38,795 nucleotides of DNA from a virus. The stretch lies in the UHGV virus genome UHGV-0423091, one strand, 5' to 3'. This document shows, piece by piece, positions 12,552 through 33,219 of this stretch. The notes below the pieces were generated by a model. It was given only the letters and a program-made list of their open reading frames with translations. It was not told where the DNA came from and ran no database searches. The stretch's first letter is position 1; each line of letters begins with the position of its first letter. The position numbers and the translations under genes were made by a program.

Positions 12552-12628
12552 GTGGCATTAGCTCAGTTGGACAGAGCAACCGCCTTCTAAGCGGTTGGTC
12601 GCAGGTTCGAATCCTGCATGCCACGCCA
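12552..12628 (+). tRNA. tRNA-Arg (anticodon TCT, reads AGA/AGG), argU-like
   Basis: Hand-folded cloverleaf: 7-bp acceptor GTGGCAT/ATGCCAC, D-arm GCTC...GAGC, anticodon stem ACCGC/GCGGT with loop CTTCTAA, T-arm GCAGG-TTCGAAT-CCTGC, discriminator G and encoded CCA. Confidence 0.85.
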
Positions 12629-12715: not shown

Positions 12716-12791
12716 AGCAGGACGCCATTGCGATGACTTCATGCTGTAAACCCGTGCAGCCACGGAAGGCATAACTCATTGCTTCCAGTTC

Positions 12792-12815
12792 GCCCGGTTC
12801 GCCGGGCATTTTTTT
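12792..12815 (+). terminator. second intrinsic terminator (GCCCGG-UUCG-CCGGGC plus T7)
   Basis: 6-bp GC stem with UUCG tetraloop followed by seven T. Confidence 0.55.
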
Positions 12816-12831
12816 GCTTGATGACCGCAAA

Positions 12832-12849
12832 TTACCTTAAAGGTATAAT
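12832..12849. promoter_or_regulatory. operator-like site TTACC-ttaaa-GGTAt overlapping a perfect TATAAT (12844-12849) just upstream of the moron gene
   Basis: One-mismatch copy of the dispersed palindrome; consensus -10 hexamer. Confidence 0.4.
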
Positions 12850-12850
12850 C

Positions 12851-13669
12851 ATGAAAAACTTCAAGGTAATTAGCATGTTTGAATCGTTCAAAGAGCTGTT
12901 TTTATCTACTGCCAATACTGCCGTGAATCGAGCCAAAAACCCTGTGCTTGGTGCTTTTGTTATGTCCTGGTGCGCCTTCAACTGGAAATCAATTCTTTAT
13001 CTATTTTTTAGCAAATCAAACATAATAGATAAAATTTCATATATCTCAGATAACAGCACATGGAAAACTGTTATGTTTTATCCATGCTTATCTGTAATTG
13101 CTATCTGCTGCCTATTACCATGGGTAAACAATATCATTAACGTATGGCAAGCAAAGCCTCTTGATAATAATGACTCAATCGAAAATCACCTGAAGGCAAG
13201 AAAAATCCAGCGTGAAACAAGACTGCAGAGGTTATTGGCTAAAAAAGATGTTACATACGACAAAGTTAAGACTGGCGCGGAAAAAGACATCCAAGAGATG
13301 AAAGAAGAGATTATTCGATCAAAGAATAGTATGGGGGAATTGACTGCCGAGTTGAAAGCTAAAGATGACGAATTGAGATCCGCCAGTGCTCAGTTAGCAG
13401 CTCTAAATCATTCATTAAAAGAGATATCGGAAACTCTTGGAAGAATGAATGAGGCATATAAGACCCTCCAAAATGATTTCGACGAATACAAACTCAAATA
13501 CCCTGAAAAATCTCAAATAAAAAGCCTTGAACTTGGCAACGGCCAAACAATTAGCAACTTTTTGGAGCAACACAACTTATCCGGATTAAAATCTGGTAAG
13601 CCAAACGTTTTTAATAACTTTGGTGTTCTATCTGGATTATCAGGTTTCGAGGATAAAAATAAAGACTAA
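12851..13669 (+). CDS. moron: membrane plus coiled-coil protein, 272 aa; candidate superinfection-exclusion or abortive-infection factor
   Basis: Track ORF trimmed to ATG 12851; two predicted transmembrane segments then a long charged helical region; AT-rich; antisense to and converging on the terminase gene. Confidence 0.65.
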   Translation: MKNFKVISMFESFKELFLSTANTAVNRAKNPVLGAFVMSWCAFNWKSILYLFFSKSNIIDKISYISDNSTWKTVMFYPCLSVIAICCLLPWVNNIINVWQAKPLDNNDSIENHLKARKIQRETRLQRLLAKKDVTYDKVKTGAEKDIQEMKEEIIRSKNSMGELTAELKAKDDELRSASAQLAALNHSLKEISETLGRMNEAYKTLQNDFDEYKLKYPEKSQIKSLELGNGQTISNFLEQHNLSGLKSGKPNVFNNFGVLSGLSGFEDKNKD

Positions 13670-16191: not shown

Positions 16192-16537
16192 TCTGATTTT
16201 CCTGCATCATGAGGAAGACAATCATGGCGGCGCGGAGAACATTTTCATGCTCATGCTCCCAAATATGGTTGGCAGAAGCACCGTGCAAACCGCTTTCGTT
16301 CCAGTCCCAGAGAATGTTAACTCCGTTATCAGCAATAATCGGCCATGAGGCGCTCGGATCATTGCAGTAGTCAGGTAAAGGGTTTAATGGCTCAAAAGTT
16401 GTATCAGCATTTCCGTAATACCATTTGTTGGTGTTATTCCCTGACGTTTCCGGTTTACATGCCCAAAGGCCTTTAAAAATTATGTCTCCTACCATTCTGT
16501 TAATTTCAAAATCACTTAACTGTGAATAGTCCATCAT
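16184..16537 (-). CDS. hypothetical nin-region protein, 117 aa (tentatively NinX/DUF2591-like)
   Basis: Track ORF; conserved-looking PDYCNDP...W segment; family assignment from memory only. Confidence 0.5.
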   Translation of the reverse strand: MMDYSQLSDFEINRMVGDIIFKGLWACKPETSGNNTNKWYYGNADTTFEPLNPLPDYCNDPSASWPIIADNGVNILWDWNESGLHGASANHIWEHEHENVLRAAMIVFLMMQENQNG

Positions 16538-17172
16538 TTCGCCACCTTCGGAGGCTCTGGTAGCGGCATCCAGTGAGTTACGTCATCCAAGATATTTCCT
16601 GATAAATGCGTGAAAGCTCTATATTTTTTGTAATTAATTGGATTTAAAACCCAGTTCCAATATGCGGCCACGATTTCACCTTGACTAAATGCCAGTAACA
16701 TTTTGGTGTCTTCCGGCATTCGATCACTACAGCTTATCCAACCATCCGGAATTACCGGAGAGTTGCCGGGTTCTTTAATGTGCAAGCGAGGCTCACCATC
16801 TTTTGGTTCAGGCCACTGGCGTTCCATGTTGATCTTCAATTTATTTTCCATAGCAGCGGTAATTTCAGCATCACTGATACCAGCACGGCGCTGTGCATCC
16901 CACAACAGGAACTGCATATCAGCCCACTCGCTGAGATCGTCAGGTTTGGCTGCGGCTTCCAGAGCCTCTTTTGAGAGGTGTTTCAGTGGACCAATGGGGC
17001 CAACGCAGCCAAATGTGGAGTCAGACCATTTGGCATGCTCGTGGCGAATCTGTTCGCGTTCCAGCGATGCCAGTGCAATCCGTGCCACTTCCATTTGTTC
17101 GCCACGAGTAAGTCCGTTATCAAGCGGATTTTTAATGAATAATTCGATACGCTCTTTGGTAATAGTGGTCAT
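16534..17172 (-). CDS. DUF550/DUF551-type two-domain protein, 212 aa (putative nucleotide pyrophosphohydrolase-like N-domain)
   Basis: Trimmed to ATG 17172 with AAGGAG SD; C-terminal W...MPE...THWMPLPEPP segment resembles DUF551. Confidence 0.55.
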   Translation of the reverse strand: MTTITKERIELFIKNPLDNGLTRGEQMEVARIALASLEREQIRHEHAKWSDSTFGCVGPIGPLKHLSKEALEAAAKPDDLSEWADMQFLLWDAQRRAGISDAEITAAMENKLKINMERQWPEPKDGEPRLHIKEPGNSPVIPDGWISCSDRMPEDTKMLLAFSQGEIVAAYWNWVLNPINYKKYRAFTHLSGNILDDVTHWMPLPEPPKVAK

Positions 17173-17173
17173 A

Positions 17174-17896
17174 TCACTCTCCTTTGATGCGAATGCCAGC
17201 GGCGCGGGAATCATTCCATCGCTTTACTTCTTCACGAATTACGTCAATGCATTCTTTCGAATCCATTAGGTAATCTTCATCAAAAAGCCTTTCCTGTTCG
17301 TTTTCTATCGCAACAATGATTGCTTCAACTAACTTTTGTGCCTGAGAACCACTTTCTAACTCTGCAATGCGCTTCTCTGCGGCTTCCAGCTTCTCGCGCA
17401 TATCGTCAACGTACTCGACCAGAGATCCGCCAGCAGGAATTTCGCACTCCTCGACCAGTTGGAAGTAGATATCAGCTGCGGCCCGTGTGTTGCTATGCCT
17501 AGCGTCGCCCATCTCACCTTCACGAAGAGCATCGCGTTCGGCGGTAAGATTGGCTATTTTGCTGTCTTTGCCTTCCAGCTCAACTCTCAGCTTCCCTACC
17601 GTTAGCGCAATTTCCTCGTTCTCCTGATCGCGGCGTTTTATGTATTGCTGGTTTCTTTCCCGTTCATCCAGCAGTGCCTGCACTACTTCAGGGTTGAAAG
17701 CTGCGATATAACGAGCATTAGCAGCAGCTTTTTTCTGTCCATCAAACCCAGGCCATTTGATAACATCTTCGCATCGTTTATCACCTGGCGTATGCACCGC
17801 ATACGTACCAGTACCCGGCGAAATAAATGCGACCCATTCGCCCTGTGTTGCCTGTTTTGCTAACTCACGCAGTGCCTGATAGTCAATCTTGCTCAC
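17174..17896 (-). CDS. coiled-coil protein, 240 aa (possibly Ead/Ea22-like)
   Basis: Track ORF; N-terminal MSKIDYQALRELA motif and long heptad-like central region. Confidence 0.5.
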   Translation of the reverse strand: MSKIDYQALRELAKQATQGEWVAFISPGTGTYAVHTPGDKRCEDVIKWPGFDGQKKAAANARYIAAFNPEVVQALLDERERNQQYIKRRDQENEEIALTVGKLRVELEGKDSKIANLTAERDALREGEMGDARHSNTRAAADIYFQLVEECEIPAGGSLVEYVDDMREKLEAAEKRIAELESGSQAQKLVEAIIVAIENEQERLFDEDYLMDSKECIDVIREEVKRWNDSRAAGIRIKGE

Positions 17897-21769: not shown

Positions 21770-21790
21770 AATCATATTTTTCAGTAAGTA

Positions 21791-21816
21791 AGCCGCCAGA
21801 AGGCGGCTTTTTTATT
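21791..21816 (+). terminator. rho-independent terminator after the repressor gene
   Basis: AGCCGCC-AGAA-GGCGGCT followed by TTTTTTATT. Confidence 0.75.
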
Positions 21817-21826
21817 GCCTATTCGA

Positions 21827-21903
21827 TTACCTAATGGGTAATTTTTTTAACTCATATCTATTGACATCAAACCAGATACGCATAATTATTACCTCAACGG
21901 TAA
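21827..21903. promoter_or_regulatory. second operator pair with sigma70-like promoter (TTGACA at 21861-21866) for the plus-strand recombination operon
   Basis: Perfect palindromes at 21827-21841 (TTACC-taatg-GGTAA) and 21889-21903 (TTACC-tcaac-GGTAA), the latter over the -10/start region. Confidence 0.55.
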
Positions 21904-21922: not shown

Positions 21923-22075
21923 ATGCAGTGGAAAATCATCAACGGTTGGTACTGCGTTACTGCATGCGGATTCATGAGCTGGAAGTTCCGCACCTTACAG
22001 GAAGGCATTAAGTGGGCTTTCGTCAGCAAAGAAGCTCGCGATGTGGCCAACGATAACGAGATATGGGAGGGCTGA
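21923..22075 (+). CDS. small ORF, 50 aa, Cys/Trp-containing
   Basis: ATG 21923 with AGGT 6 nt upstream; below the 60-aa track cutoff; first ORF after the promoter. Confidence 0.3.
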   Translation: MQWKIINGWYCVTACGFMSWKFRTLQEGIKWAFVSKEARDVANDNEIWEG

Positions 22076-22077
22076 TA

Positions 22078-22377
22078 ATGAACGTTAATCAGCAGAAAAA
22101 TCTTCAAAAAATCATGCTGGCATTCGACAAGGACTACCGCCTGTCAGAACAGCTATATGACCGACAAGTTGAACTGATTGAGAGTATCCGGCTTCATCAA
22201 CTGGCATCAACTTTCGACGTTGTAACAGTTAAAGGCGTTCGCCAGGAAGTACTGGAGGCCGCTAAAGACAGCCCTGAGTTCGAAGAACTAATGGATGCCT
22301 ACCGGCGCGAGGCAATGGCAATTATCGCCCGCTGGGATCTGGCTGATCAGATTGATGGGCAGAGGGACGCGGCATGA
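22078..22377 (+). CDS. hypothetical early protein, 99 aa
   Basis: Track ORF 22063..22377 trimmed to ATG 22078 with GGGAGGG SD. Confidence 0.5.
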   Translation: MNVNQQKNLQKIMLAFDKDYRLSEQLYDRQVELIESIRLHQLASTFDVVTVKGVRQEVLEAAKDSPEFEELMDAYRREAMAIIARWDLADQIDGQRDAA

Positions 22378-23195
22378 ATCCGGGAATTTATTTCGATATC
22401 AGCAACGAGGACTACCACGCCGGTGACGGCGTGAGTAAGTCGCAGCTAGATATGGTGGCTAAGAACCCTGCCCTTCTGAAATGGGTGAAGGCTGCTCCGG
22501 AAGACGAAGAGAAGAAGTCTGCACTGGACATGGGTACTGCTCTGCACTGTCTGCTTCTGGAACCTGGAGAGTTTGACAAACGCTTCATCGTTTCACCGAA
22601 ATTCGATCGTCGGACAAAACAAGGTAAAGCTGACGAAGAGGCATTTATTCGTGATGTAGCGGATATGGGGATTTCGGTACTTGATGCAGAGCAGTGGCGA
22701 AAACTGGAGCTGATGCGTGATAGCGCAATGGCTCACCCGGCGGCACGCTGGATGTTGGAAGCACCTGGTTACTGCGAAGCATCAATGTACTGGAACGATG
22801 AAGATACGGGTGAGTTGTGCCGAATTCGTCCAGACAAATGGCTGAACGAGCACAACGTGATCGTCGACGTGAAAAAGGTTGCAGATATGGACCGTTTTGC
22901 ACGCCACATCGAGGAGTTCCGCTACCACGTGCAGGACGCAATGTACCGCGAAGGCGCAATGAGGGTTACTGGTCAGCCACATGGTTTTTTCTTTCTTGCC
23001 GTGAGCGAAAGCATTGATTGTGGTCGGTATCCGGTACGCGTGTTCGAGCTGGATGCGCCGGATGTCGATGCCGGGCACGCTCTGTTCCGCCGGGATCTGA
23101 ATACCTATCACGAATGCCGCATCAACGATGAGTGGGGCGGAGTGGAAATTATTAAACGCCCTGACTGGGCACGTAAACAGGATATGTACGTATGA
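22374..23195 (+). CDS. PD-(D/E)XK-type exonuclease (YqaJ/RecE-like recombination exonuclease), 273 aa
   Basis: Coupled to the downstream annealing-protein gene; IVDVKK-type nuclease motif. Confidence 0.6.
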   Translation: MNPGIYFDISNEDYHAGDGVSKSQLDMVAKNPALLKWVKAAPEDEEKKSALDMGTALHCLLLEPGEFDKRFIVSPKFDRRTKQGKADEEAFIRDVADMGISVLDAEQWRKLELMRDSAMAHPAARWMLEAPGYCEASMYWNDEDTGELCRIRPDKWLNEHNVIVDVKKVADMDRFARHIEEFRYHVQDAMYREGAMRVTGQPHGFFFLAVSESIDCGRYPVRVFELDAPDVDAGHALFRRDLNTYHECRINDEWGGVEIIKRPDWARKQDMYV

Positions 23196-24073
23196 GCAAT
23201 GATATCGCAATCACATCACAACCAGGCGCAACTGTAGGTACTGCTGCGGCAATCTTCAGCCCGGAGGGCATGAATCAACTGGTGCGTTTCGCGGAGTTGA
23301 TGTCACAAAGCAAAGCGACTGTACCGAAACATCTTGAAGGCAAACCTGCCGATTGTCTGGCGGTGACCATGCAGGCGGCACAGTGGGGAATGAATCCTTT
23401 CGCCGTGGCGCAGAAAACGCATGTGGTAAACGGAACGTTAGGCTACGAAGCACAGTTGGTAAACGCGGTCGTATCCTCTTCCAGCCTGCTAGCGACACGC
23501 CTGAATTATCGCTGGAGCGGTGACTGGTCGAATGTTAACGGCAAAACAGATAAATCACCGAATCTGACGGTAACTGTGTCAGCAGTTCTTAAAGGAGAAG
23601 CAGAACCCCGTGAGCTTACCATCAGTATGGCGCAAGCCGGAGTGCGTAACTCTCCATTGTGGGAACAGGATCCGCGCCAGCAGCTTGCCTATCTTTGCAC
23701 GAAACGATGGGCTCGCCTGCACGCTCCTGATGTACTTCTCGGTGTTTACACCCCTGACGAATTACAGGAAACGGCACCGCGCGTTGAGCGAGACATTACT
23801 CCGCAAACGACCACTGCTGCGGGAATGAACAGTCTGATCAACGCTAAACCAGCGAAAAAGCCTGATGAGCAAACGCGTAAAGCGGATAGCCGTGATCCAG
23901 AAGAAATGCTGATGGCCTTTACCAGCGCAGCGATGAATTACAGCACTGTCTCCGAACTGGATAAGGCTTACAAATACATTGCACAAAAACTTTCAGATGA
24001 TGACGAACTGCTGGCAAAAGCCACCGACGTTTACAGCGTTCGTCGGGAAGAATTAAACGAAACATCTATGTAA
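23192..24073 (+). CDS. single-strand annealing protein, Red-beta (Bet) family, 293 aa
   Basis: Segments GMNPFAVAQ and ERDITP parallel lambda Beta as I remember it; paired with the exonuclease. Confidence 0.7.
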   Translation: MSNDIAITSQPGATVGTAAAIFSPEGMNQLVRFAELMSQSKATVPKHLEGKPADCLAVTMQAAQWGMNPFAVAQKTHVVNGTLGYEAQLVNAVVSSSSLLATRLNYRWSGDWSNVNGKTDKSPNLTVTVSAVLKGEAEPRELTISMAQAGVRNSPLWEQDPRQQLAYLCTKRWARLHAPDVLLGVYTPDELQETAPRVERDITPQTTTAAGMNSLINAKPAKKPDEQTRKADSRDPEEMLMAFTSAAMNYSTVSELDKAYKYIAQKLSDDDELLAKATDVYSVRREELNETSM

Positions 24074-24122
24074 CCACCACCGCGGCGCCACGCGCGCCGC
24101 ACTGCAACCAAGAGAGGTATTT

Positions 24123-24371
24123 ATGAAAGGTGCATTAGGTAAGAAGGAACTCCTGGCGGTGGTGCCACTGTCATGGAGCACTATCGACCGTATGGAGCGC
24201 GCAGGGGAATTTCCTAAACGCTGGTATATCACCGATAAACGCTGCGCATGGAACCGTGATGAAGTTGAGCGTTGGCTTGATGAACGTCAGGCAGCAAGCC
24301 CGGCAGAGTTCCAGGGTAAAAAACCTCCTGTTCAGCAACGTGTATATCGTCCCGTGAGCAACGCGGCATGA
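24123..24371 (+). CDS. AlpA-family HTH protein (excisionase/regulator), 82 aa
   Basis: Small basic protein with the MERAGEFPKRWYI...W...EVERW pattern typical of AlpA/Vis-type proteins; about 1.2 kb from the integrase. Confidence 0.65.
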   Translation: MKGALGKKELLAVVPLSWSTIDRMERAGEFPKRWYITDKRCAWNRDEVERWLDERQAASPAEFQGKKPPVQQRVYRPVSNAA

Positions 24372-24480
24372 GTGTGCTGCTAAGGCACTGGAGCAAATGG
24401 TCAGGATGGTACTTATTCCTGGCCTCTGTTTCTGCATGGCTTTATCTGCTGGCATTAATTTTCAGAGAGGGTTGGATTAA

Positions 24481-24780
24481 GTGAGAAAGTTAAGCCGACT
24501 TGAAAAATATCACATGAACAAGGTTTCAATGCGCAGCCCTTCAAAGGTTGTTGCCGTTACTCCTGCGGCGATAGAGATCGAAAAACGCGCGATTGAAAGA
24601 GAGAAAAAAGGGCAGTTCCGCATTGCCGCCCACCTTTGGCTTCAGTGTATGGATGTTGCTTCTGGTGATGTTGAGCGTGCAAGGATCGCGGTTCGCAGGG
24701 ACCAATGTATCACAAAAGGTAACGGCCTTCGCCGTGGCGACTATAGCGGCATAGGATGTTGCGGGGTGGTTTATGACTAA
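24481..24780 (+). CDS. small putative regulatory protein, 99 aa
   Basis: Track ORF (GTG start) immediately upstream of and overlapping the methyltransferase start. Confidence 0.45.
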   Translation: MRKLSRLEKYHMNKVSMRSPSKVVAVTPAAIEIEKRAIEREKKGQFRIAAHLWLQCMDVASGDVERARIAVRRDQCITKGNGLRRGDYSGIGCCGVVYD

Positions 24781-25423
24781 GAAATACACACTAATCTATG
24801 CAGATCCACCCTGGGTATACCGGGACAAAGCCGCAGATGGTAATCGCGGTGCCGGTTTTAAATATCCGGTTATGAGTGTGCTGGATATCTGCCGCCTTCC
24901 TGTGTGGGATTTGGCCGATGAAAACTGTCTGTTGGCCATGTGGTGGGTGCCAACACAACCACTCGAAGCACTAAAAGTTGTTGAAGCCTGGGGATTCCGT
25001 CTGATGACCATGAAGGGCTTCACGTGGATAAAATGTGGTAGTCGACAACCAGATAAACTGGTTATGGGTATGGGACACATGACTCGCGCCAATAGTGAAG
25101 ATTGCCTGTTTGCAGTAAAGGGAAAACTACCTCCGCGCATTAATGCAGGGATCGTTCAGTCATTTACCGCACCGCGGCTTGAGCATTCAAGAAAACCAGA
25201 TGTCGTTCGTGAAAAACTTGTGCAATTGTTAGGCGATGTTTCTCGCATTGAACTGTTCGCCCGCCAGTCGTCTCATGGCTTCGATGTTTGGGGTAATCAG
25301 TGCGAAGACCCGGCAGTGCAACTACACCCTGGATACGCATTGGATATTGCCAGATTAACAAATGCATTCAGCAATGCTCCGCTGTCACCAACAGACAACC
25401 AGGGGCGGGAGCGTGCAGCATGA
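24773..25423 (+). CDS. DNA N6-adenine methyltransferase, MT-A70-like (DPPW motif), 216 aa, orphan
   Basis: IYADPPW catalytic motif near the N-terminus; no adjacent restriction endonuclease gene. Confidence 0.8.
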   Translation: MTKKYTLIYADPPWVYRDKAADGNRGAGFKYPVMSVLDICRLPVWDLADENCLLAMWWVPTQPLEALKVVEAWGFRLMTMKGFTWIKCGSRQPDKLVMGMGHMTRANSEDCLFAVKGKLPPRINAGIVQSFTAPRLEHSRKPDVVREKLVQLLGDVSRIELFARQSSHGFDVWGNQCEDPAVQLHPGYALDIARLTNAFSNAPLSPTDNQGRERAA

Positions 25424-25614
25424 ACAGGGCATCACCAGCAGATTTAAGGAAATGCCTTGAAACTGCAAACATGCTTGCACACAGCGGGATCAGGTTTGTT
25501 CCAGTTCCCGCTGTCACTGATGCTGAATTTGCAACGCTGTCAGCAATATTCGCAGACAAAATTGAATCACTGGCAGCAGAAGCCGAGATGGAAGAAAATC
25601 AGCAGAATAATTAA
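25420..25614 (+). CDS. hypothetical protein, 64 aa
   Basis: ATG 25420 overlaps the methyltransferase stop (ATGA); acidic C-terminus. Confidence 0.4.
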   Translation: MNRASPADLRKCLETANMLAHSGIRFVPVPAVTDAEFATLSAIFADKIESLAAEAEMEENQQNN

Positions 25615-25617
25615 ACG

Positions 25618-26868
25618 TTATTCCCCCGCCATCCACTTCTCAAACTTCGACGGGGAGAACGGAATCAGATCCGTATGCTCCCCGTTAATCCAGGAATCAA
25701 TCATATCGGCCCACTGCTGCAACATGTAGGCGCGCTGTCTGGCGTATTCCGCTTTGTTATATACGGCGCGCACACCTTTCTGCTCATGTGCCAGAGCCTT
25801 TTCAATCCAGTCTGAAGGATAACCAGCCTCATGCAACAACGTACTGGCTGTACGGCGCATATCGTGTACGGTGAAGTCCTGAATATGCTCACCATCTTCA
25901 TTTATTATTTTCACCGTTCTGTCGATCAGAGAGTTCAGCGCGGCATTAGATAATGGCTTCCGGAAATTGTAACGACCAGGAACCAGATATTCACTTCCAC
26001 CAGCGCACATCTGCAACCCGACCAATATATCCTGTGCCTGTTTAGGCAGGTAAATAACGTGCGCCCGGCTTCCCTTCATACGGTCTGAAGGAATTGTCCA
26101 TGTCCATTTTTTAAAATCTATTTCATCCCACGTTGCATTGGTGAATTCGCCTTTACGAACCATAGTGATAAGCACCAGCTTTAAAGCCATTTTCATAGTG
26201 CCCATAGCGCCAATGGCATCCAACGTGCGGAAGAACAGGCCAATTTCTTCTGGTGTCAGTGTTCGCTCTCGTGGTTTAAATATGGCGATAGACGAAGGTT
26301 TAATGTCAGCCGCAGGATTAAACAAACCATGACCACGGTCATTGGCGTGACGGTATACGCTGCTGATGATCTCCCGGGCCTGCACTGCTGTTGCCCGGCC
26401 ACCGCGTTCGACAATCCGGTCACACAAATCACGAACCATCGATGTGGTAATTTCAGCCATCATTTTGTTGCCAAGAACCGGAAGTATGTCACGGTCGATC
26501 ACCGCCTGCTTCATTGCGCGGGTACTTTCAGCCAGGATGACGTGTTTCATATAACTGTCGGTATGTACCGCAAATGTCTCGGCACCACGAATCTTTTTGA
26601 TACCGTCACGTTTAGCCGCAGCCGGCGACTGGCCTGCTTTAAGCAGCTTCTTTGCAGCAATCAGTTCTTCCCGCGCTTCTGCCAGGCTGATACCGTCACG
26701 CCCATACTGCCCGATTACCAGTGTTTCGCGGCGACCGTTGATACGGTAGTCATAGCGAAACGAGACCGTACCTGACGTAAGCACAGCTACATACAGCCCG
26801 TCACGATCGGAAACTTTGTACAGTTTGTCCTGTGGCTTGAGGTTCTTTAATTTTGTATCGGTAAGCAC
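25618..26868 (-). CDS. tyrosine integrase, P4-type, 416 aa
   Basis: Size; N-terminal MLTDTKLKNLKP-type arm-binding region; C-terminal HDMRRT...LAHE...Y catalytic region. Confidence 0.85.
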   Translation of the reverse strand: MLTDTKLKNLKPQDKLYKVSDRDGLYVAVLTSGTVSFRYDYRINGRRETLVIGQYGRDGISLAEAREELIAAKKLLKAGQSPAAAKRDGIKKIRGAETFAVHTDSYMKHVILAESTRAMKQAVIDRDILPVLGNKMMAEITTSMVRDLCDRIVERGGRATAVQAREIISSVYRHANDRGHGLFNPAADIKPSSIAIFKPRERTLTPEEIGLFFRTLDAIGAMGTMKMALKLVLITMVRKGEFTNATWDEIDFKKWTWTIPSDRMKGSRAHVIYLPKQAQDILVGLQMCAGGSEYLVPGRYNFRKPLSNAALNSLIDRTVKIINEDGEHIQDFTVHDMRRTASTLLHEAGYPSDWIEKALAHEQKGVRAVYNKAEYARQRAYMLQQWADMIDSWINGEHTDLIPFSPSKFEKWMAGE

Positions 26869-32265: not shown

Positions 32266-32532
32266 ATTTACATCGCACTCCTCTTGTGCCATAGTAATCG
32301 GGCACTGGCAAAATCCAGTGCCGGGATTGGCGTTCCGGATTACTACAGAGGCACATATGCCGCATAAGCGGTTTTTTTATGTGTAAAGCGCACCTATTCT
32401 ATGGTGGGCTGTGTGGGGGCACCGAAAGGTGCGCCGGGTTCCTTTGTAGCCGGTTACGCCAACCCTGCACAGTTCACCACCAACCGATTGGCGTCGGTAG
32501 TGGTGATTAACCTAACTACAAAGGTGATCACT

Positions 32533-33219
32533 ATGACTGCTAACGTAACCCCATCTGTTTTTCATTTTGAATCAGAAGCAACCATTCGAGCCATTGTTAT
32601 TGATGGAAATCCTTGGTTTGTTGCCAAAGACGTTATTAAAGCTCTTCAACTGACAAACCCCACTATGTCAATAAAATCTCTTGATGATGATGAAAGGGCT
32701 AAATTTAACTTAGGCCGTCAAGGCGAAACCAATATTATCAACGAGTCAGGCCTCTACACACTGATCCTCCGCTGCCGCGACGCAGTGACACCAGGCACTA
32801 TCCCCTACCGCTTTCGTAAATGGGTTACAGGTGAGGTTCTTCCTCAGATCCGCCGCACCGGAAGTTACATTAAAAACTCGCTCCCGCAGGAAGAACGCAT
32901 AAAGATGGTTGCCGACCAAGTAGCCAACGCCACGGCGTCAGCAGTGATGCAGGCAATGAAGATAGAGAACAAAACCTACAGTGCACCACTGAAGCCCGGC
33001 TACCGCAGCCTGATTCATTCGCCGTCTGGTGTTCTCGGCCTGACGGAGAACTCACTGCTGATGAATTTGCTGAACCAGTTACAGGAAGACGGGCATGACG
33101 TATCGGGCGCGGCGGCGGAGCTGACCACCATGTTCTGCTACATCGTCGGTGTGAGCAAATGCCTGCGTGATATCCAGACGCACGCGGAGTACATCAACGA
33201 CAAAGCAGGGTTCTTCTGA
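32533..33219 (+). CDS. antirepressor, Bro-N domain family, 228 aa
   Basis: Track ORF 32401..33219 trimmed to ATG 32533 (AAGGTG SD); N-terminal Bro-N-like segment IRAIVIDGNPWFVAKDV...LYTLILRC. Confidence 0.7.
   Translation: MTANVTPSVFHFESEATIRAIVIDGNPWFVAKDVIKALQLTNPTMSIKSLDDDERAKFNLGRQGETNIINESGLYTLILRCRDAVTPGTIPYRFRKWVTGEVLPQIRRTGSYIKNSLPQEERIKMVADQVANATASAVMQAMKIENKTYSAPLKPGYRSLIHSPSGVLGLTENSLLMNLLNQLQEDGHDVSGAAAELTTMFCYIVGVSKCLRDIQTHAEYINDKAGFF

Follow-up and report, generated by a model that had tools for sequence, protein, structure and literature searches.

Described methyltransferase loci of temperate phages

Small phage-encoded methyltransferases of the MT-A70 family have been interpreted in two conflicting ways, namely as Dam-like enzymes acting on GATC in DNA (REBASE, BZS1) or as partner-dependent rRNA methyltransferases (phiPA8). 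The latter interpretation derives from M.EcoPA8orf6770P, which forms a 1:1 complex with PNB-2, the product of the co-transcribed upstream gene (PMC10810198; Gong, Chakraborty & Koudelka, NAR 2023). The complex favoured 16S rRNA >13-fold in a SAM-consumption assay with the methylation site unmapped, and the purified methyltransferase was nearly inactive on dam- DNA in vitro (PMC10810198). M.EcoPA8orf6770P was reported to increase spontaneous prophage induction; induction and virulence phenotype were gone upon mutation of its DPPW motif to APPA, and its C-terminal ~27 amino acids, typical of the STEC enzymes, were tied by the authors to association with PNB-2 (PMC10810198). According to the rRNA interpretation, such enzymes tune prophage induction and Shiga-toxin release.

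The GATC interpretation rests on close relatives. M.EcoGV of E. coli O104:H4 is closely similar to M.EcoPA8orf6770P (PMC10810198) and, according to the secondary accounts (PMC10810198; PMC6602927, Table 3), methylates GATC in vivo; these refer to over-expression, with Fang et al. 2012 as primary source. In case of Serratia phage vB_SspM_BZS1, the orphan methyltransferase p32 was cloned alone in a dam- host and rendered plasmid DNA MboI-resistant and DpnI-sensitive, i.e., it is GATC-specific (PMC7556043). The MT-A70 enzyme M.EfaBMDam of Tn1549 is cited as GATC-specific in the same publication (PMC7556043). Orf63 of phage lambda is an early developmental protein encoded in the exo-xis region (PMC10869804), the genes of which are described in summary form as dispensable in the laboratory.

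Gene cluster and early-left operon

The window analysed here (UHGV-0423091, 38,795 nucleotides) represents a complete phiV10-like (Uetakevirus) genome of the temperate podophage type. An MT-A70 methyltransferase gene flanked by two small genes is located next to the integrase gene. The relevant features are:

21790-21809: terminator of the repressor gene, upstream of the promoter-like site
21861-21889, + strand: predicted promoter-like site (TTGACA-17-AATTAT; consensus scan, 10/12 match)
24123-24371, + strand: putative excisionase/regulator of the AlpA family, 82 aa (Pfam PF05930, E 3e-5)
24368-24484, + strand: predicted membrane protein, 38 aa (PHROG 17484, E 5e-27; annotated as phiV10p35)
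24481-24780, + strand: PerC/ANR-like small helical protein, 99 aa, GTG start (Pfam PerC PF06069, PHROG 868)
24773-25423, + strand: solitary MT-A70 (beta-class) N6-adenine methyltransferase, 216 aa, ATG start (Pfam PF05063)
25420-25614, + strand: homolog of lambda Orf63 (DUF1382), 64 aa, ATG start (Pfam PF07131)
25618-26868, - strand: P4-type tyrosine integrase (Pfam Arm-DNA-bind_3, Phage_int_M, Phage_integrase)

The last three plus-strand ORFs, with coordinates identical to those in the sequence-only reading, overlap by 8 nt at the first junction (ATGACTAA) and by 4 nt at the second (ATGA). Shine-Dalgarno-like purine runs precede the GTG at 24481 (GAGAGGG, 9 nt upstream) and the ATG at 25420 (GGGAG, 8 nt upstream). 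Translational coupling of the methyltransferase gene to its small neighbours had been proposed; the start/stop overlaps are in line with this, but they are an operon-wide property and not special to the trio. The 38-aa ORF bridges the AlpA gene (ATGA overlap) and the PerC-like gene (GTGA overlap with its start codon), and ATGA/GTGA-type overlaps occur from 22063 to 25614 at all junctions except that between RecT and AlpA (49-nt gap, 24073-24123). The gene order is exo, RecT, AlpA, 38-aa ORF, PerC-like gene, methyltransferase and orf63-like gene, followed by the integrase gene on the opposite strand, which is convergent and has its stop codon 3 nt from that of the orf63-like gene.

The AlpA-family protein also matches PHROG 66 ("excisionase and transcriptional regulator", E 2e-16). 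The previously suggested placement in the early operon, with an adjoining excisionase and a convergent integrase, agrees with the annotation, the AlpA-type protein being the excisionase candidate. The promoter-like site at 21861-21889 is a candidate start of this early-left operon, and no strong plus-strand terminator was found between 21861 and 25614. The trio is best explained as the group of genes closing the early-left (recombination/excision) operon rather than as one dedicated system, and we infer the timing of its expression from the predicted operon structure.

A restriction endonuclease was not found across the 38.8-kb genome, for which the collinear annotation of phage ZX5 as well as Pfam/PADLOC scans of the non-collinear ORFs were used. 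The methyltransferase had been described as lacking a cognate restriction enzyme, and since the genome contains none and both neighbouring products are PerC-like and Orf63-like, respectively, the designation "orphan" is correct. A type II restriction-modification system is ruled out, as the genome encodes no nuclease for it. In some relatives, a PDDEXK_5 gene adjoins the methyltransferase gene; it does not do so in this genome.

Proteins encoded in the cluster

The methyltransferase matches the entire PF05063 model (residues 5-176, model positions 1-172 of 172; 78.6 bits, cut-off 23.9; E 7e-22) as well as the PADLOC model MTase_II (E 5e-77). Its YADPPWVY sequence (residues 9-16) places the DPPW motif at residues 11-14 close to the N-terminus (motif IV, permuted beta order), confirming the originally assigned DPPW-type N6-adenine methyltransferase as intact. 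DPPW aligns with that of Tetrahymena MTA1, as do the blocks EDCLFAVKG, SRKPD and IELFAR, such conserved blocks being common to MTA1/METTL3. The protein consists of a catalytic core (residues 1-187) and a lineage-specific C-terminal tail of 29 residues. In the AlphaFold2 model, which is of moderate quality (pLDDT 69, pTM 0.66), the protein adopts a predicted MT-A70 Rossmann-like fold, with METTL3 (E 2.5e-11, TM 0.59) and ciliate MTA1 (rmsd 4.6 A) as top Foldseek matches in the PDB. All three genes of the cluster are under purifying selection in comparison with diverged relatives (dN/dS 0.04-0.2; methyltransferase 0.05-0.09, PerC-like gene 0.04-0.13).

The sequence-only reading had correctly sized the two flanking genes (99 and 64 aa) and had left them anonymous, which they are not. 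The upstream product matches PHROG 868 (E 6.5e-62) and, at model positions 5-50 of 90 only, Pfam PF06069 (E 6e-7; 30.1 bits, cut-off 22.6); its match to the NCBIfam ANR model (NF033650) is under the cut-off (23.6 bits versus 32; E 3e-5). Among 12 related upstream proteins, 6 matched PerC and 9 ANR. A search of the PDB with the PerC-like protein retrieved no informative match (best E 0.12, TPR repeats). The protein shares 79 % identity over 99 residues with gp31 of phage epsilon15, in which the internal methionine is replaced by leucine. Since conservation in gp31 extends to the N-terminal 11 residues, the GTG start (99 aa) is favoured over the ATG start of the phiV10 RefSeq annotation (88 aa). 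The protein may form a single TPR-like helical hairpin, and the family acts through protein-protein contact with regulators. Activation of transcription is the activity associated with PerC/Pch proteins, whereas ANR proteins are associated with binding to H-NS and to regulators of the AraC type.

The downstream product matches Pfam PF07131 over the complete model (positions 1-60 of 60; 105 bits, E 2e-30) and lambda Orf63 in the PDB (8DSB; E 8.5e-13, residues 2-62). It would probably form a lambda-Orf63-like dimer of a family promoting lytic development. The PerC/ANR-like and Orf63-like proteins may represent separate early accessory proteins, as in the lambda exo-xis region.

Distribution and variability

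The cluster is already known: it was annotated in phiV10 in 2006 and is present in ~10 % of complete E. coli genomes (539 of 5,426), where its genes are annotated as encoding a PerC family regulator, an MT-A70 methyltransferase and a DUF1382 protein. It is a common accessory module, and the prophage type carrying it is well known. While the methyltransferase is retained in the Uetakevirus phages and prophages examined, its neighbours vary. In epsilon15 and SPN1S as well as in prophages of Salmonella and Enterobacter, the PerC-like gene is separated from the methyltransferase gene by one or two other genes; in SPN1S, the methyltransferase gene is displaced by two inserted genes. The region is mosaic, with an insertion slot between these two genes, alternative downstream genes and, in some strains, a phosphatase gene instead of orf63.

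Target and function of the methyltransferase

The enzyme shares 83 % identity (156/187, residues 1-187) with TL-2011c gp13, which is of the M.EcoPA8orf6770P type (42/42 nt of the phiPA8 terminator sequence matched upstream of TL-2011c gp12), and 82-83 % over 187 residues with the enzymes of Stx2a/O104 phages. Identity to the HK639 enzyme is 44.3 %, the latter being 74 % identical to that of BZS1; BZS1 itself shares ~40 % (local BLASTP). The target motif had previously been called unknown, which understates what the relatives of the enzyme indicate, i.e., the M.EcoGV type at 83 % and the GATC-specific BZS1 clade at 44 %. With moderate confidence, the middle gene is considered to encode a solitary, Dam-mimicking GATC DNA methyltransferase; we infer both this specificity (by homology) and the biological roles. 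Genome composition provides no support for this specificity, since the GATC count is at expectation (151 observed versus 153 +/- 10 expected; neither avoided nor enriched), and the C-terminal tail, unlike that of both characterised relatives, counts against it, as do the near inactivity of purified M.EcoPA8orf6770P on dam- DNA and the dependence of the M.EcoGV result on over-expression.

As a GATC methyltransferase, the protein would be a small SAM-dependent beta-class enzyme acting alone, probably as homo-oligomer like other beta-class enzymes. Once the operon is switched on after infection or induction, GATC adenine would become methylated in phage and host DNA, so that rapidly replicating phage DNA could stay fully methylated independent of limiting host Dam. 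Likely consequences would be shielding from restriction systems cutting unmethylated GATC, evasion of MutH/SeqA action at hemimethylated or unmethylated sites, and a shift in Dam-sensitive lysis-lysogeny control. An anti-restriction or epigenetic role, as initially suggested, is plausible.

An anti-restriction DNA methyltransferase could also have a target other than GATC, i.e., a new short motif or relaxed to non-specific adenine methylation. The enzyme is indeed very small, has no separate target-recognition domain and deviates from the Stx-phage type at several positions of the putative recognition loop (residues 84-108); moreover, non-specific phage adenine methyltransferases such as M.EcoGII exist. 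This possibility is nevertheless very unlikely, considering that the tested relatives on either side in the family tree, BZS1 p32 and the M.EcoGV type, are GATC-specific, as is M.EfaBMDam according to its citation in the BZS1 study, and that the cluster is so common in E. coli. To our knowledge, no orphan extra motif has been ascribed to the cluster, which may be explained by masking through host Dam if the target is GATC. That the methyltransferase fulfils no dedicated function at all, being either a moron that is expressed without being needed or a gene carried along silently by modular recombination, would be in line with the mosaic and variable region and with the non-essential exo-xis genes of lambda as summarised above. 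Strong purifying selection, the intactness of all catalytic motifs and the retention of the gene in the examined Uetakevirus phages and prophages argue against this possibility, which is considered extremely improbable.

A further alternative is a two-subunit RNA methyltransferase, in which the PerC/ANR-like protein would bind the enzyme and direct it to 16S rRNA or other RNA in a PNB-2-like manner; altered translation would then change the frequency of prophage induction. The precedents are the complexed, 16S rRNA-preferring ortholog type and the solved MT-A70 relatives, all of which are hetero-oligomers (METTL3-METTL14; MTA1-MTA9-p1-p2). In addition, the pairing recurs: among 38 methyltransferase lineages (clusters at 85 % identity), 7 have a PerC/ANR-like gene immediately adjoining the methyltransferase start and a further 4 have one no more than 1.3 kb upstream, in each case with the same orientation. 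Each of the other neighbour families occurs in no more than 3 lineages; pairs span down to 39 % identity to the enzyme of the window. Two in-frame PerC::methyltransferase fusions (P0003, P0004) hardly differ from the window in sequence and may have arisen from 1-nt indels or assembly errors; no distant fusion was present in the 120 best of 169 profile matches. On the other hand, a PerC/ANR gene is not nearby in 26 of the 38 lineages, one or two unrelated genes separate the pair in sister phages, and p32 of BZS1 methylated GATC without the adjacent ANR gene (PMC7556043). Homology of the PerC-like protein to PNB-2 is rejected, since BLASTP against TL-2011c gp12 gave no alignment and phmmer with PNB-2 over all loci gathered matched TL-2011c and nothing else; composite wHTH+PerC proteins of Buttiauxella and Dryocola likewise displayed no PNB-2 similarity. 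Furthermore, the STEC-type C-terminal stretch linked to PNB-2 is absent, the alignment ending at residue 187 where a different tail follows, and the rRNA preference of the phiPA8 enzyme itself is based on SAM consumption. Taken together, the RNA methyltransferase is an unlikely alternative to the GATC-specific DNA methyltransferase.

The recurrence of the PerC/ANR-methyltransferase pair is a mildly new point, literature on such a link not having been found, and the PerC/ANR-like protein could be a partner subunit. One may speculate that phage MT-A70 methyltransferases have a second class of accessory subunits, widespread and made up of PerC/ANR-like mini-proteins, which would be functionally analogous to PNB-2, METTL14 or MTA9/p1/p2, even though this generalization seems quite doubtful. 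Binding might switch or gate the substrate, e.g., from GATC in DNA to rRNA, or couple methylation with the choice between lysis and lysogeny. The co-oriented and often overlapping arrangement of the pair in lineages of 39 % to 100 % identity is compatible with such a function and does not demonstrate it. If a physical complex is formed, some of the prophage proteins now bearing the label "PerC/ANR family transcriptional regulator" would in fact be methyltransferase cofactors.

Comparison with known systems

The closest counterpart is the cluster PhiV10p34-p33-p32 of phiV10 (NC_007804), which has all three genes, identically ordered and positioned, at 98 % DNA identity; their products are annotated there as a PerC-family activator, a DNA methyltransferase and a DUF1382 protein. 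Apart from the start of the PerC-like gene at the internal ATG in RefSeq, there is no substantive difference. The same cluster is present in vB_EcoP_ZX5, YDC107_2 and the O157 typing phages 9/10, the methyltransferase being 100 % identical to that of ZX5 and 97.7 % to that of phiV10.

The downstream 64-aa protein matches lambda Orf63 over its own whole length and is encoded at the corresponding place, i.e., in the early-left transcript between recombination genes and int/xis. However, lambda has no methyltransferase, whereas the orf63-like gene follows one here. METTL3-METTL14 and the ciliate MTA1c complex share the fold and the DPPW motif and provide the best structural matches to the phage enzyme. 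At ~20-25 % identity, these eukaryotic enzymes possess extra domains and require paralogous or accessory subunits, whereas the phage protein represents the bare catalytic core.

BZS1 resembles the present locus in that the PerC/ANR-superfamily gene p33 is located directly 5' of the orphan MT-A70 gene p32 near xis/int. It differs by an insertion of ~20 residues in the putative recognition loop of the methyltransferase, by a shorter ANR protein (60 aa) devoid of the C-terminal YSGI-type extension, and by the absence of a downstream Orf63 homolog.

In case of phiPA8, the organization is likewise similar: the upstream gene overlaps the methyltransferase start, a DUF1382/Orf63 gene follows, and the methyltransferase gene is located in the early region near int/xis without a nuclease. 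The phages encoding M.EcoPA8orf6770P and M.EcoGV are, however, lambdoid Stx phages (Sepvirinae) rather than Uetakevirus members, PNB-2 is a predicted wHTH protein of 143 aa unrelated to the PerC-like protein, and the C-terminal tails of the two methyltransferase types are unrelated after residue 187. Since upstream neighbour and C-terminal tail both differ, the phiV10-type variant lends itself to a comparison on whether the upstream product sets the substrate.

Genome and early operon

The window represents the full, circularly permuted genome of a temperate podophage of the phiV10/epsilon15 type (genus Uetakevirus). Phage vB_EcoP_ZX5 is collinear with all of it save a few replaced segments, and 1.6 kb around the methyltransferase gene and its two small neighbours share 98.3% identity with phiV10 and 98-99% with several other E. 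coli phages. Copies of the 1,134-bp stretch (at least 95% identity) occur in 539 of 5,426 complete E. coli genomes, labelled by PGAP as PerC family regulator, MT-A70 methyltransferase and DUF1382 protein; IMG/VR holds at least 600 stretches matching the trio, and the phiV10 record has carried the same annotation since publication of that phage. The trio was known and annotated beforehand, and there is experimental work on close homologs.

Features of the methyltransferase region
21861-21889 (+), predicted promoter-like site, after the repressor-gene terminator
24481-24780 (+), PerC-like gene, 99 aa, GTG start
24773-25423 (+), methyltransferase, 216 aa, DPPW at residues 11-14
25420-25614 (+), Orf63-like gene, 64 aa

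All three ORFs are real genes, located exactly where the sequence-only reading had placed them, and dN/dS values of 0.04-0.2 against diverged relatives (with dS near saturation) indicate purifying selection on each. No strong plus-strand terminator was found between the promoter-like site and 25614. The gene order from 22063 to 25614 is a 104-aa ORF, a PDDEXK exonuclease, RecT, an AlpA-type excisionase candidate, a 38-aa membrane ORF and the trio; the integrase gene converges on this operon, its stop codon 3 nt from that of the Orf63-like gene. Overlaps within the trio are ATGACTAA (between PerC-like gene and methyltransferase) and ATGA (between methyltransferase and Orf63-like gene). ATGA/GTGA-type overlaps mark all junctions from 22063 to 25614 except RecT-AlpA (49-nt gap), so the translational coupling previously claimed for the trio belongs to the operon at large and does not set these three genes apart.

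Identity of the flanking genes

The flanking genes are not anonymous, as had been supposed, but encode a PerC-like protein (upstream) and a DUF1382/lambda Orf63 homolog (downstream). The PerC-like product matches Pfam PerC over the cut-off (E 6e-7, N-terminal half of the model only) and PHROG 868, has weak likeness to ANR, and is 79% identical to epsilon15 gp31 across all 99 residues. Three points make the 99-aa length called from the sequence preferable to that in RefSeq: the N-terminal 11 residues are kept in gp31, the internal Met used as phiV10 start in RefSeq is Leu in epsilon15, and the GTG start shares bases with the stop codon of the 38-aa ORF before it. The Orf63-like product matches DUF1382 over its full length (Pfam, E 2e-30) as well as the NMR structure of lambda Orf63 (PDB 8DSB, E 8.5e-13), an early exo-xis-region protein which forms a phage-specific dimer and promotes lytic development (PMC10869804). 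The annotation of some E. coli strains has a Ser/Thr phosphatase gene where the match to the window ends on its 3' side, and similarity breaks off just before orf63.

Methyltransferase family and predicted target

The description as an orphan MT-A70 methyltransferase stands: the protein covers the entire Pfam MT-A70 model (E 7e-22), and restriction endonucleases were found neither in the ZX5 annotation, nor by Pfam among window ORFs in segments differing from ZX5, nor by PADLOC among the three focal products and four ORFs from such segments. Its nearest solved relatives by sequence are ciliate MTA1 (E 3.5e-13) and human METTL3, which are also the top structural matches of its AF2 model (pLDDT 69, moderate confidence).

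The tail (residues ~188-216, ..YALDIARLTNAFSNAPLSPTDNQGRERAA) resembles the C-terminus (..YPSLIEMLSATMRNAPLAPTDNQGKKK..) of a separate small Kluyvera ORF (L007, 3525-3755) located 3' of a 197-aa methyltransferase, which makes the long tail of the phiV10-type enzyme look like the relic of a gene fusion; Salmonella (P0007) and Enterobacter (P0074) prophages retain this tail. In some relatives (L008, L013, L047 and Klebsiella phage KO-TP1, H83), a PDDEXK_5 (PD-(D/E)XK endonuclease-like) gene of 168-192 aa lies directly 5' of the MT-A70 gene, and could represent a homing-type insertion or a nuclease partner; the window contains no such gene.

As judged from sequence, the enzyme is most likely a solitary, Dam-mimicking methyltransferase that would target GATC in DNA and be expressed from the early-left operon, with the PerC-like and Orf63-like proteins as two independent small early neighbours. 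Serratia phage BZS1 p32 (MT-A70), cloned alone in a dam- host, rendered plasmid DNA MboI-resistant and DpnI-sensitive (PMC7556043) and is thus GATC-specific; p32 and the HK639 enzyme share 74% identity, and the HK639 enzyme in turn has 44% with the window enzyme. The Tn1549 enzyme M.EfaBMDam is cited as GATC-specific in the same paper. Methyltransferase matches were obtained by tblastn in 516 phage records, about 120 of them Stx2-converting phages whose enzymes share 82-83% identity over residues 1-187 (156/187 for TL-2011c gp13). For M.EcoGV, highly similar to the MT-A70 enzyme of Stx2a prophage phiPA8 (M.EcoPA8orf6770P), GATC methylation in vivo on over-production is reported, and M.EcoGV-like enzymes are given as GATC-specific in REBASE, according to PMC10810198 and Table 3 of PMC6602927. 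With GATC-specific relatives on both sides of the family, the target motif need no longer be regarded as unknown, and GATC is the best prediction. The 151 GATC sites of the window genome (153 +/- 10 expected by chance) carry no information on specificity.

The main rival reading, a partner-dependent rRNA methyltransferase, draws on phiPA8. There, M.EcoPA8orf6770P alone had almost no in vitro activity on either DNA or RNA, formed a 1:1 complex with PNB-2, the product of the gene directly upstream, and in this complex preferred 16S rRNA by SAM-consumption assay (site unmapped); spontaneous induction and virulence were both higher with its gene, an effect that depended on DPPW (Gong et al., PMC10810198). 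The window enzyme likewise has an abutting upstream gene, and the pairing is recurrent. In a survey of 128 loci with methyltransferase relatives (40 species genomes, annotated phage records, two prophage contigs, 80 BZS1-clade IMG/VR loci and the window; 38 clusters at 85% identity), the gene abutting the methyltransferase start was very variable (30 families), PerC/ANR-like being by far the largest (42 loci, 7 of 38 clusters). These lineages include some only 39-44% identical to the window enzyme, among them BZS1, whose p33 abutting p32 is annotated as ANR family. Four further clusters have a PerC/ANR-like gene within 1.3 kb upstream, and the strand is always that of the methyltransferase. 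Common to these upstream proteins is A-x-E-x-E-x-x-G-x-Y-x-x-A-A-x-x-W ... R-x-x-F/x-C as a shared motif, with Pfam PerC matches for 6 and NCBIfam ANR matches for 9 of 12 representatives.

Against an obligate partnership, 26 of the 38 clusters have no PerC/ANR-like gene nearby, BZS1 p32 is active without its ANR neighbour (PMC7556043), and one or two genes (DUF1317, PDDEXK_5, a 331-aa protein) separate PerC and methyltransferase in epsilon15, SPN1S and Salmonella and Enterobacter prophages. In the light of these intervening genes, the two genes seem to abut in the window because an insertion slot between them is empty. The only PerC::methyltransferase fusions were two proteins near-identical to the window, which could be indels; none turned up among the best 120 of 169 profile-search matches. 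A physical partnership of the PerC-like protein with the methyltransferase is considered unlikely.

Among database variants of the locus are an in-frame PerC::methyltransferase fusion of 297 aa (P0003), which fits the loss of one T from GTTTATG, a deletion fusion of 263 aa (P0004), and P0239, which joins PerC to DUF1382 and lacks the methyltransferase.

Other features of the genome

A tRNA-Arg (anticodon TCT) is predicted by both ARAGORN and Rfam at 12552-12628 (+). The 296-aa ORF at 12779-13669 (+; TTG start), in a segment absent from ZX5 and on the strand opposite to the neighbouring terminase genes, may be a moron; it matches PHROG 4780 (function unknown, E 1e-136), has weak coiled-coil/SMC-like PADLOC matches and lacks a Pfam match. 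The nin-like region adds two more lambda-type accessory genes to the podophage backbone: 16534-17214 (-) encodes a dATP/dGTP pyrophosphohydrolase with a fused DUF551, and 17174-17896 (-) an Ead/Ea22-like protein. Rfam places an isrK-like sRNA at 32302-32378 (+, 71 bits) and a C4 antisense RNA at 32397-32484 (+, 84 bits), just 5' of an Ash/Bro-N antirepressor ORF (32401-33219) and running into its start; together they form a P1/P7 immI-type antirepressor module under antisense control, in a podophage. The overlapping pair 33349-33675/33662-34174 (+), in a segment differing from ZX5, may be a toxin-antitoxin system, the second product having weak YafO-toxin likeness under the cut-off (E 9.5e-4).

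Comparison with the phiPA8 holoenzyme

The terminator printed by Gong et al. for phiPA8, just 5' of gp6, is present in TL-2011c (42/42 nt), so that TL-2011c gp12 and gp13 correspond to PNB-2 and M.EcoPA8orf6770P, respectively. In Dryocola and Buttiauxella prophages (L021, L023, L025), the PerC-like domain forms the C-terminal half of a 147-170-aa protein encoded 5' of the methyltransferase; its N-terminal half is winged-helix-like, and likeness to PNB-2 was not detectable in these proteins. Membership of the window enzyme in a phiPA8-type holoenzyme is rejected on two defining features, PNB-2 homology and Stx-type tail: the phiPA8 holoenzyme has PNB-2 upstream, whereas the upstream PerC-like protein of the window is unrelated to it, and the tail of the window methyltransferase after residue 187 differs from the Stx type.
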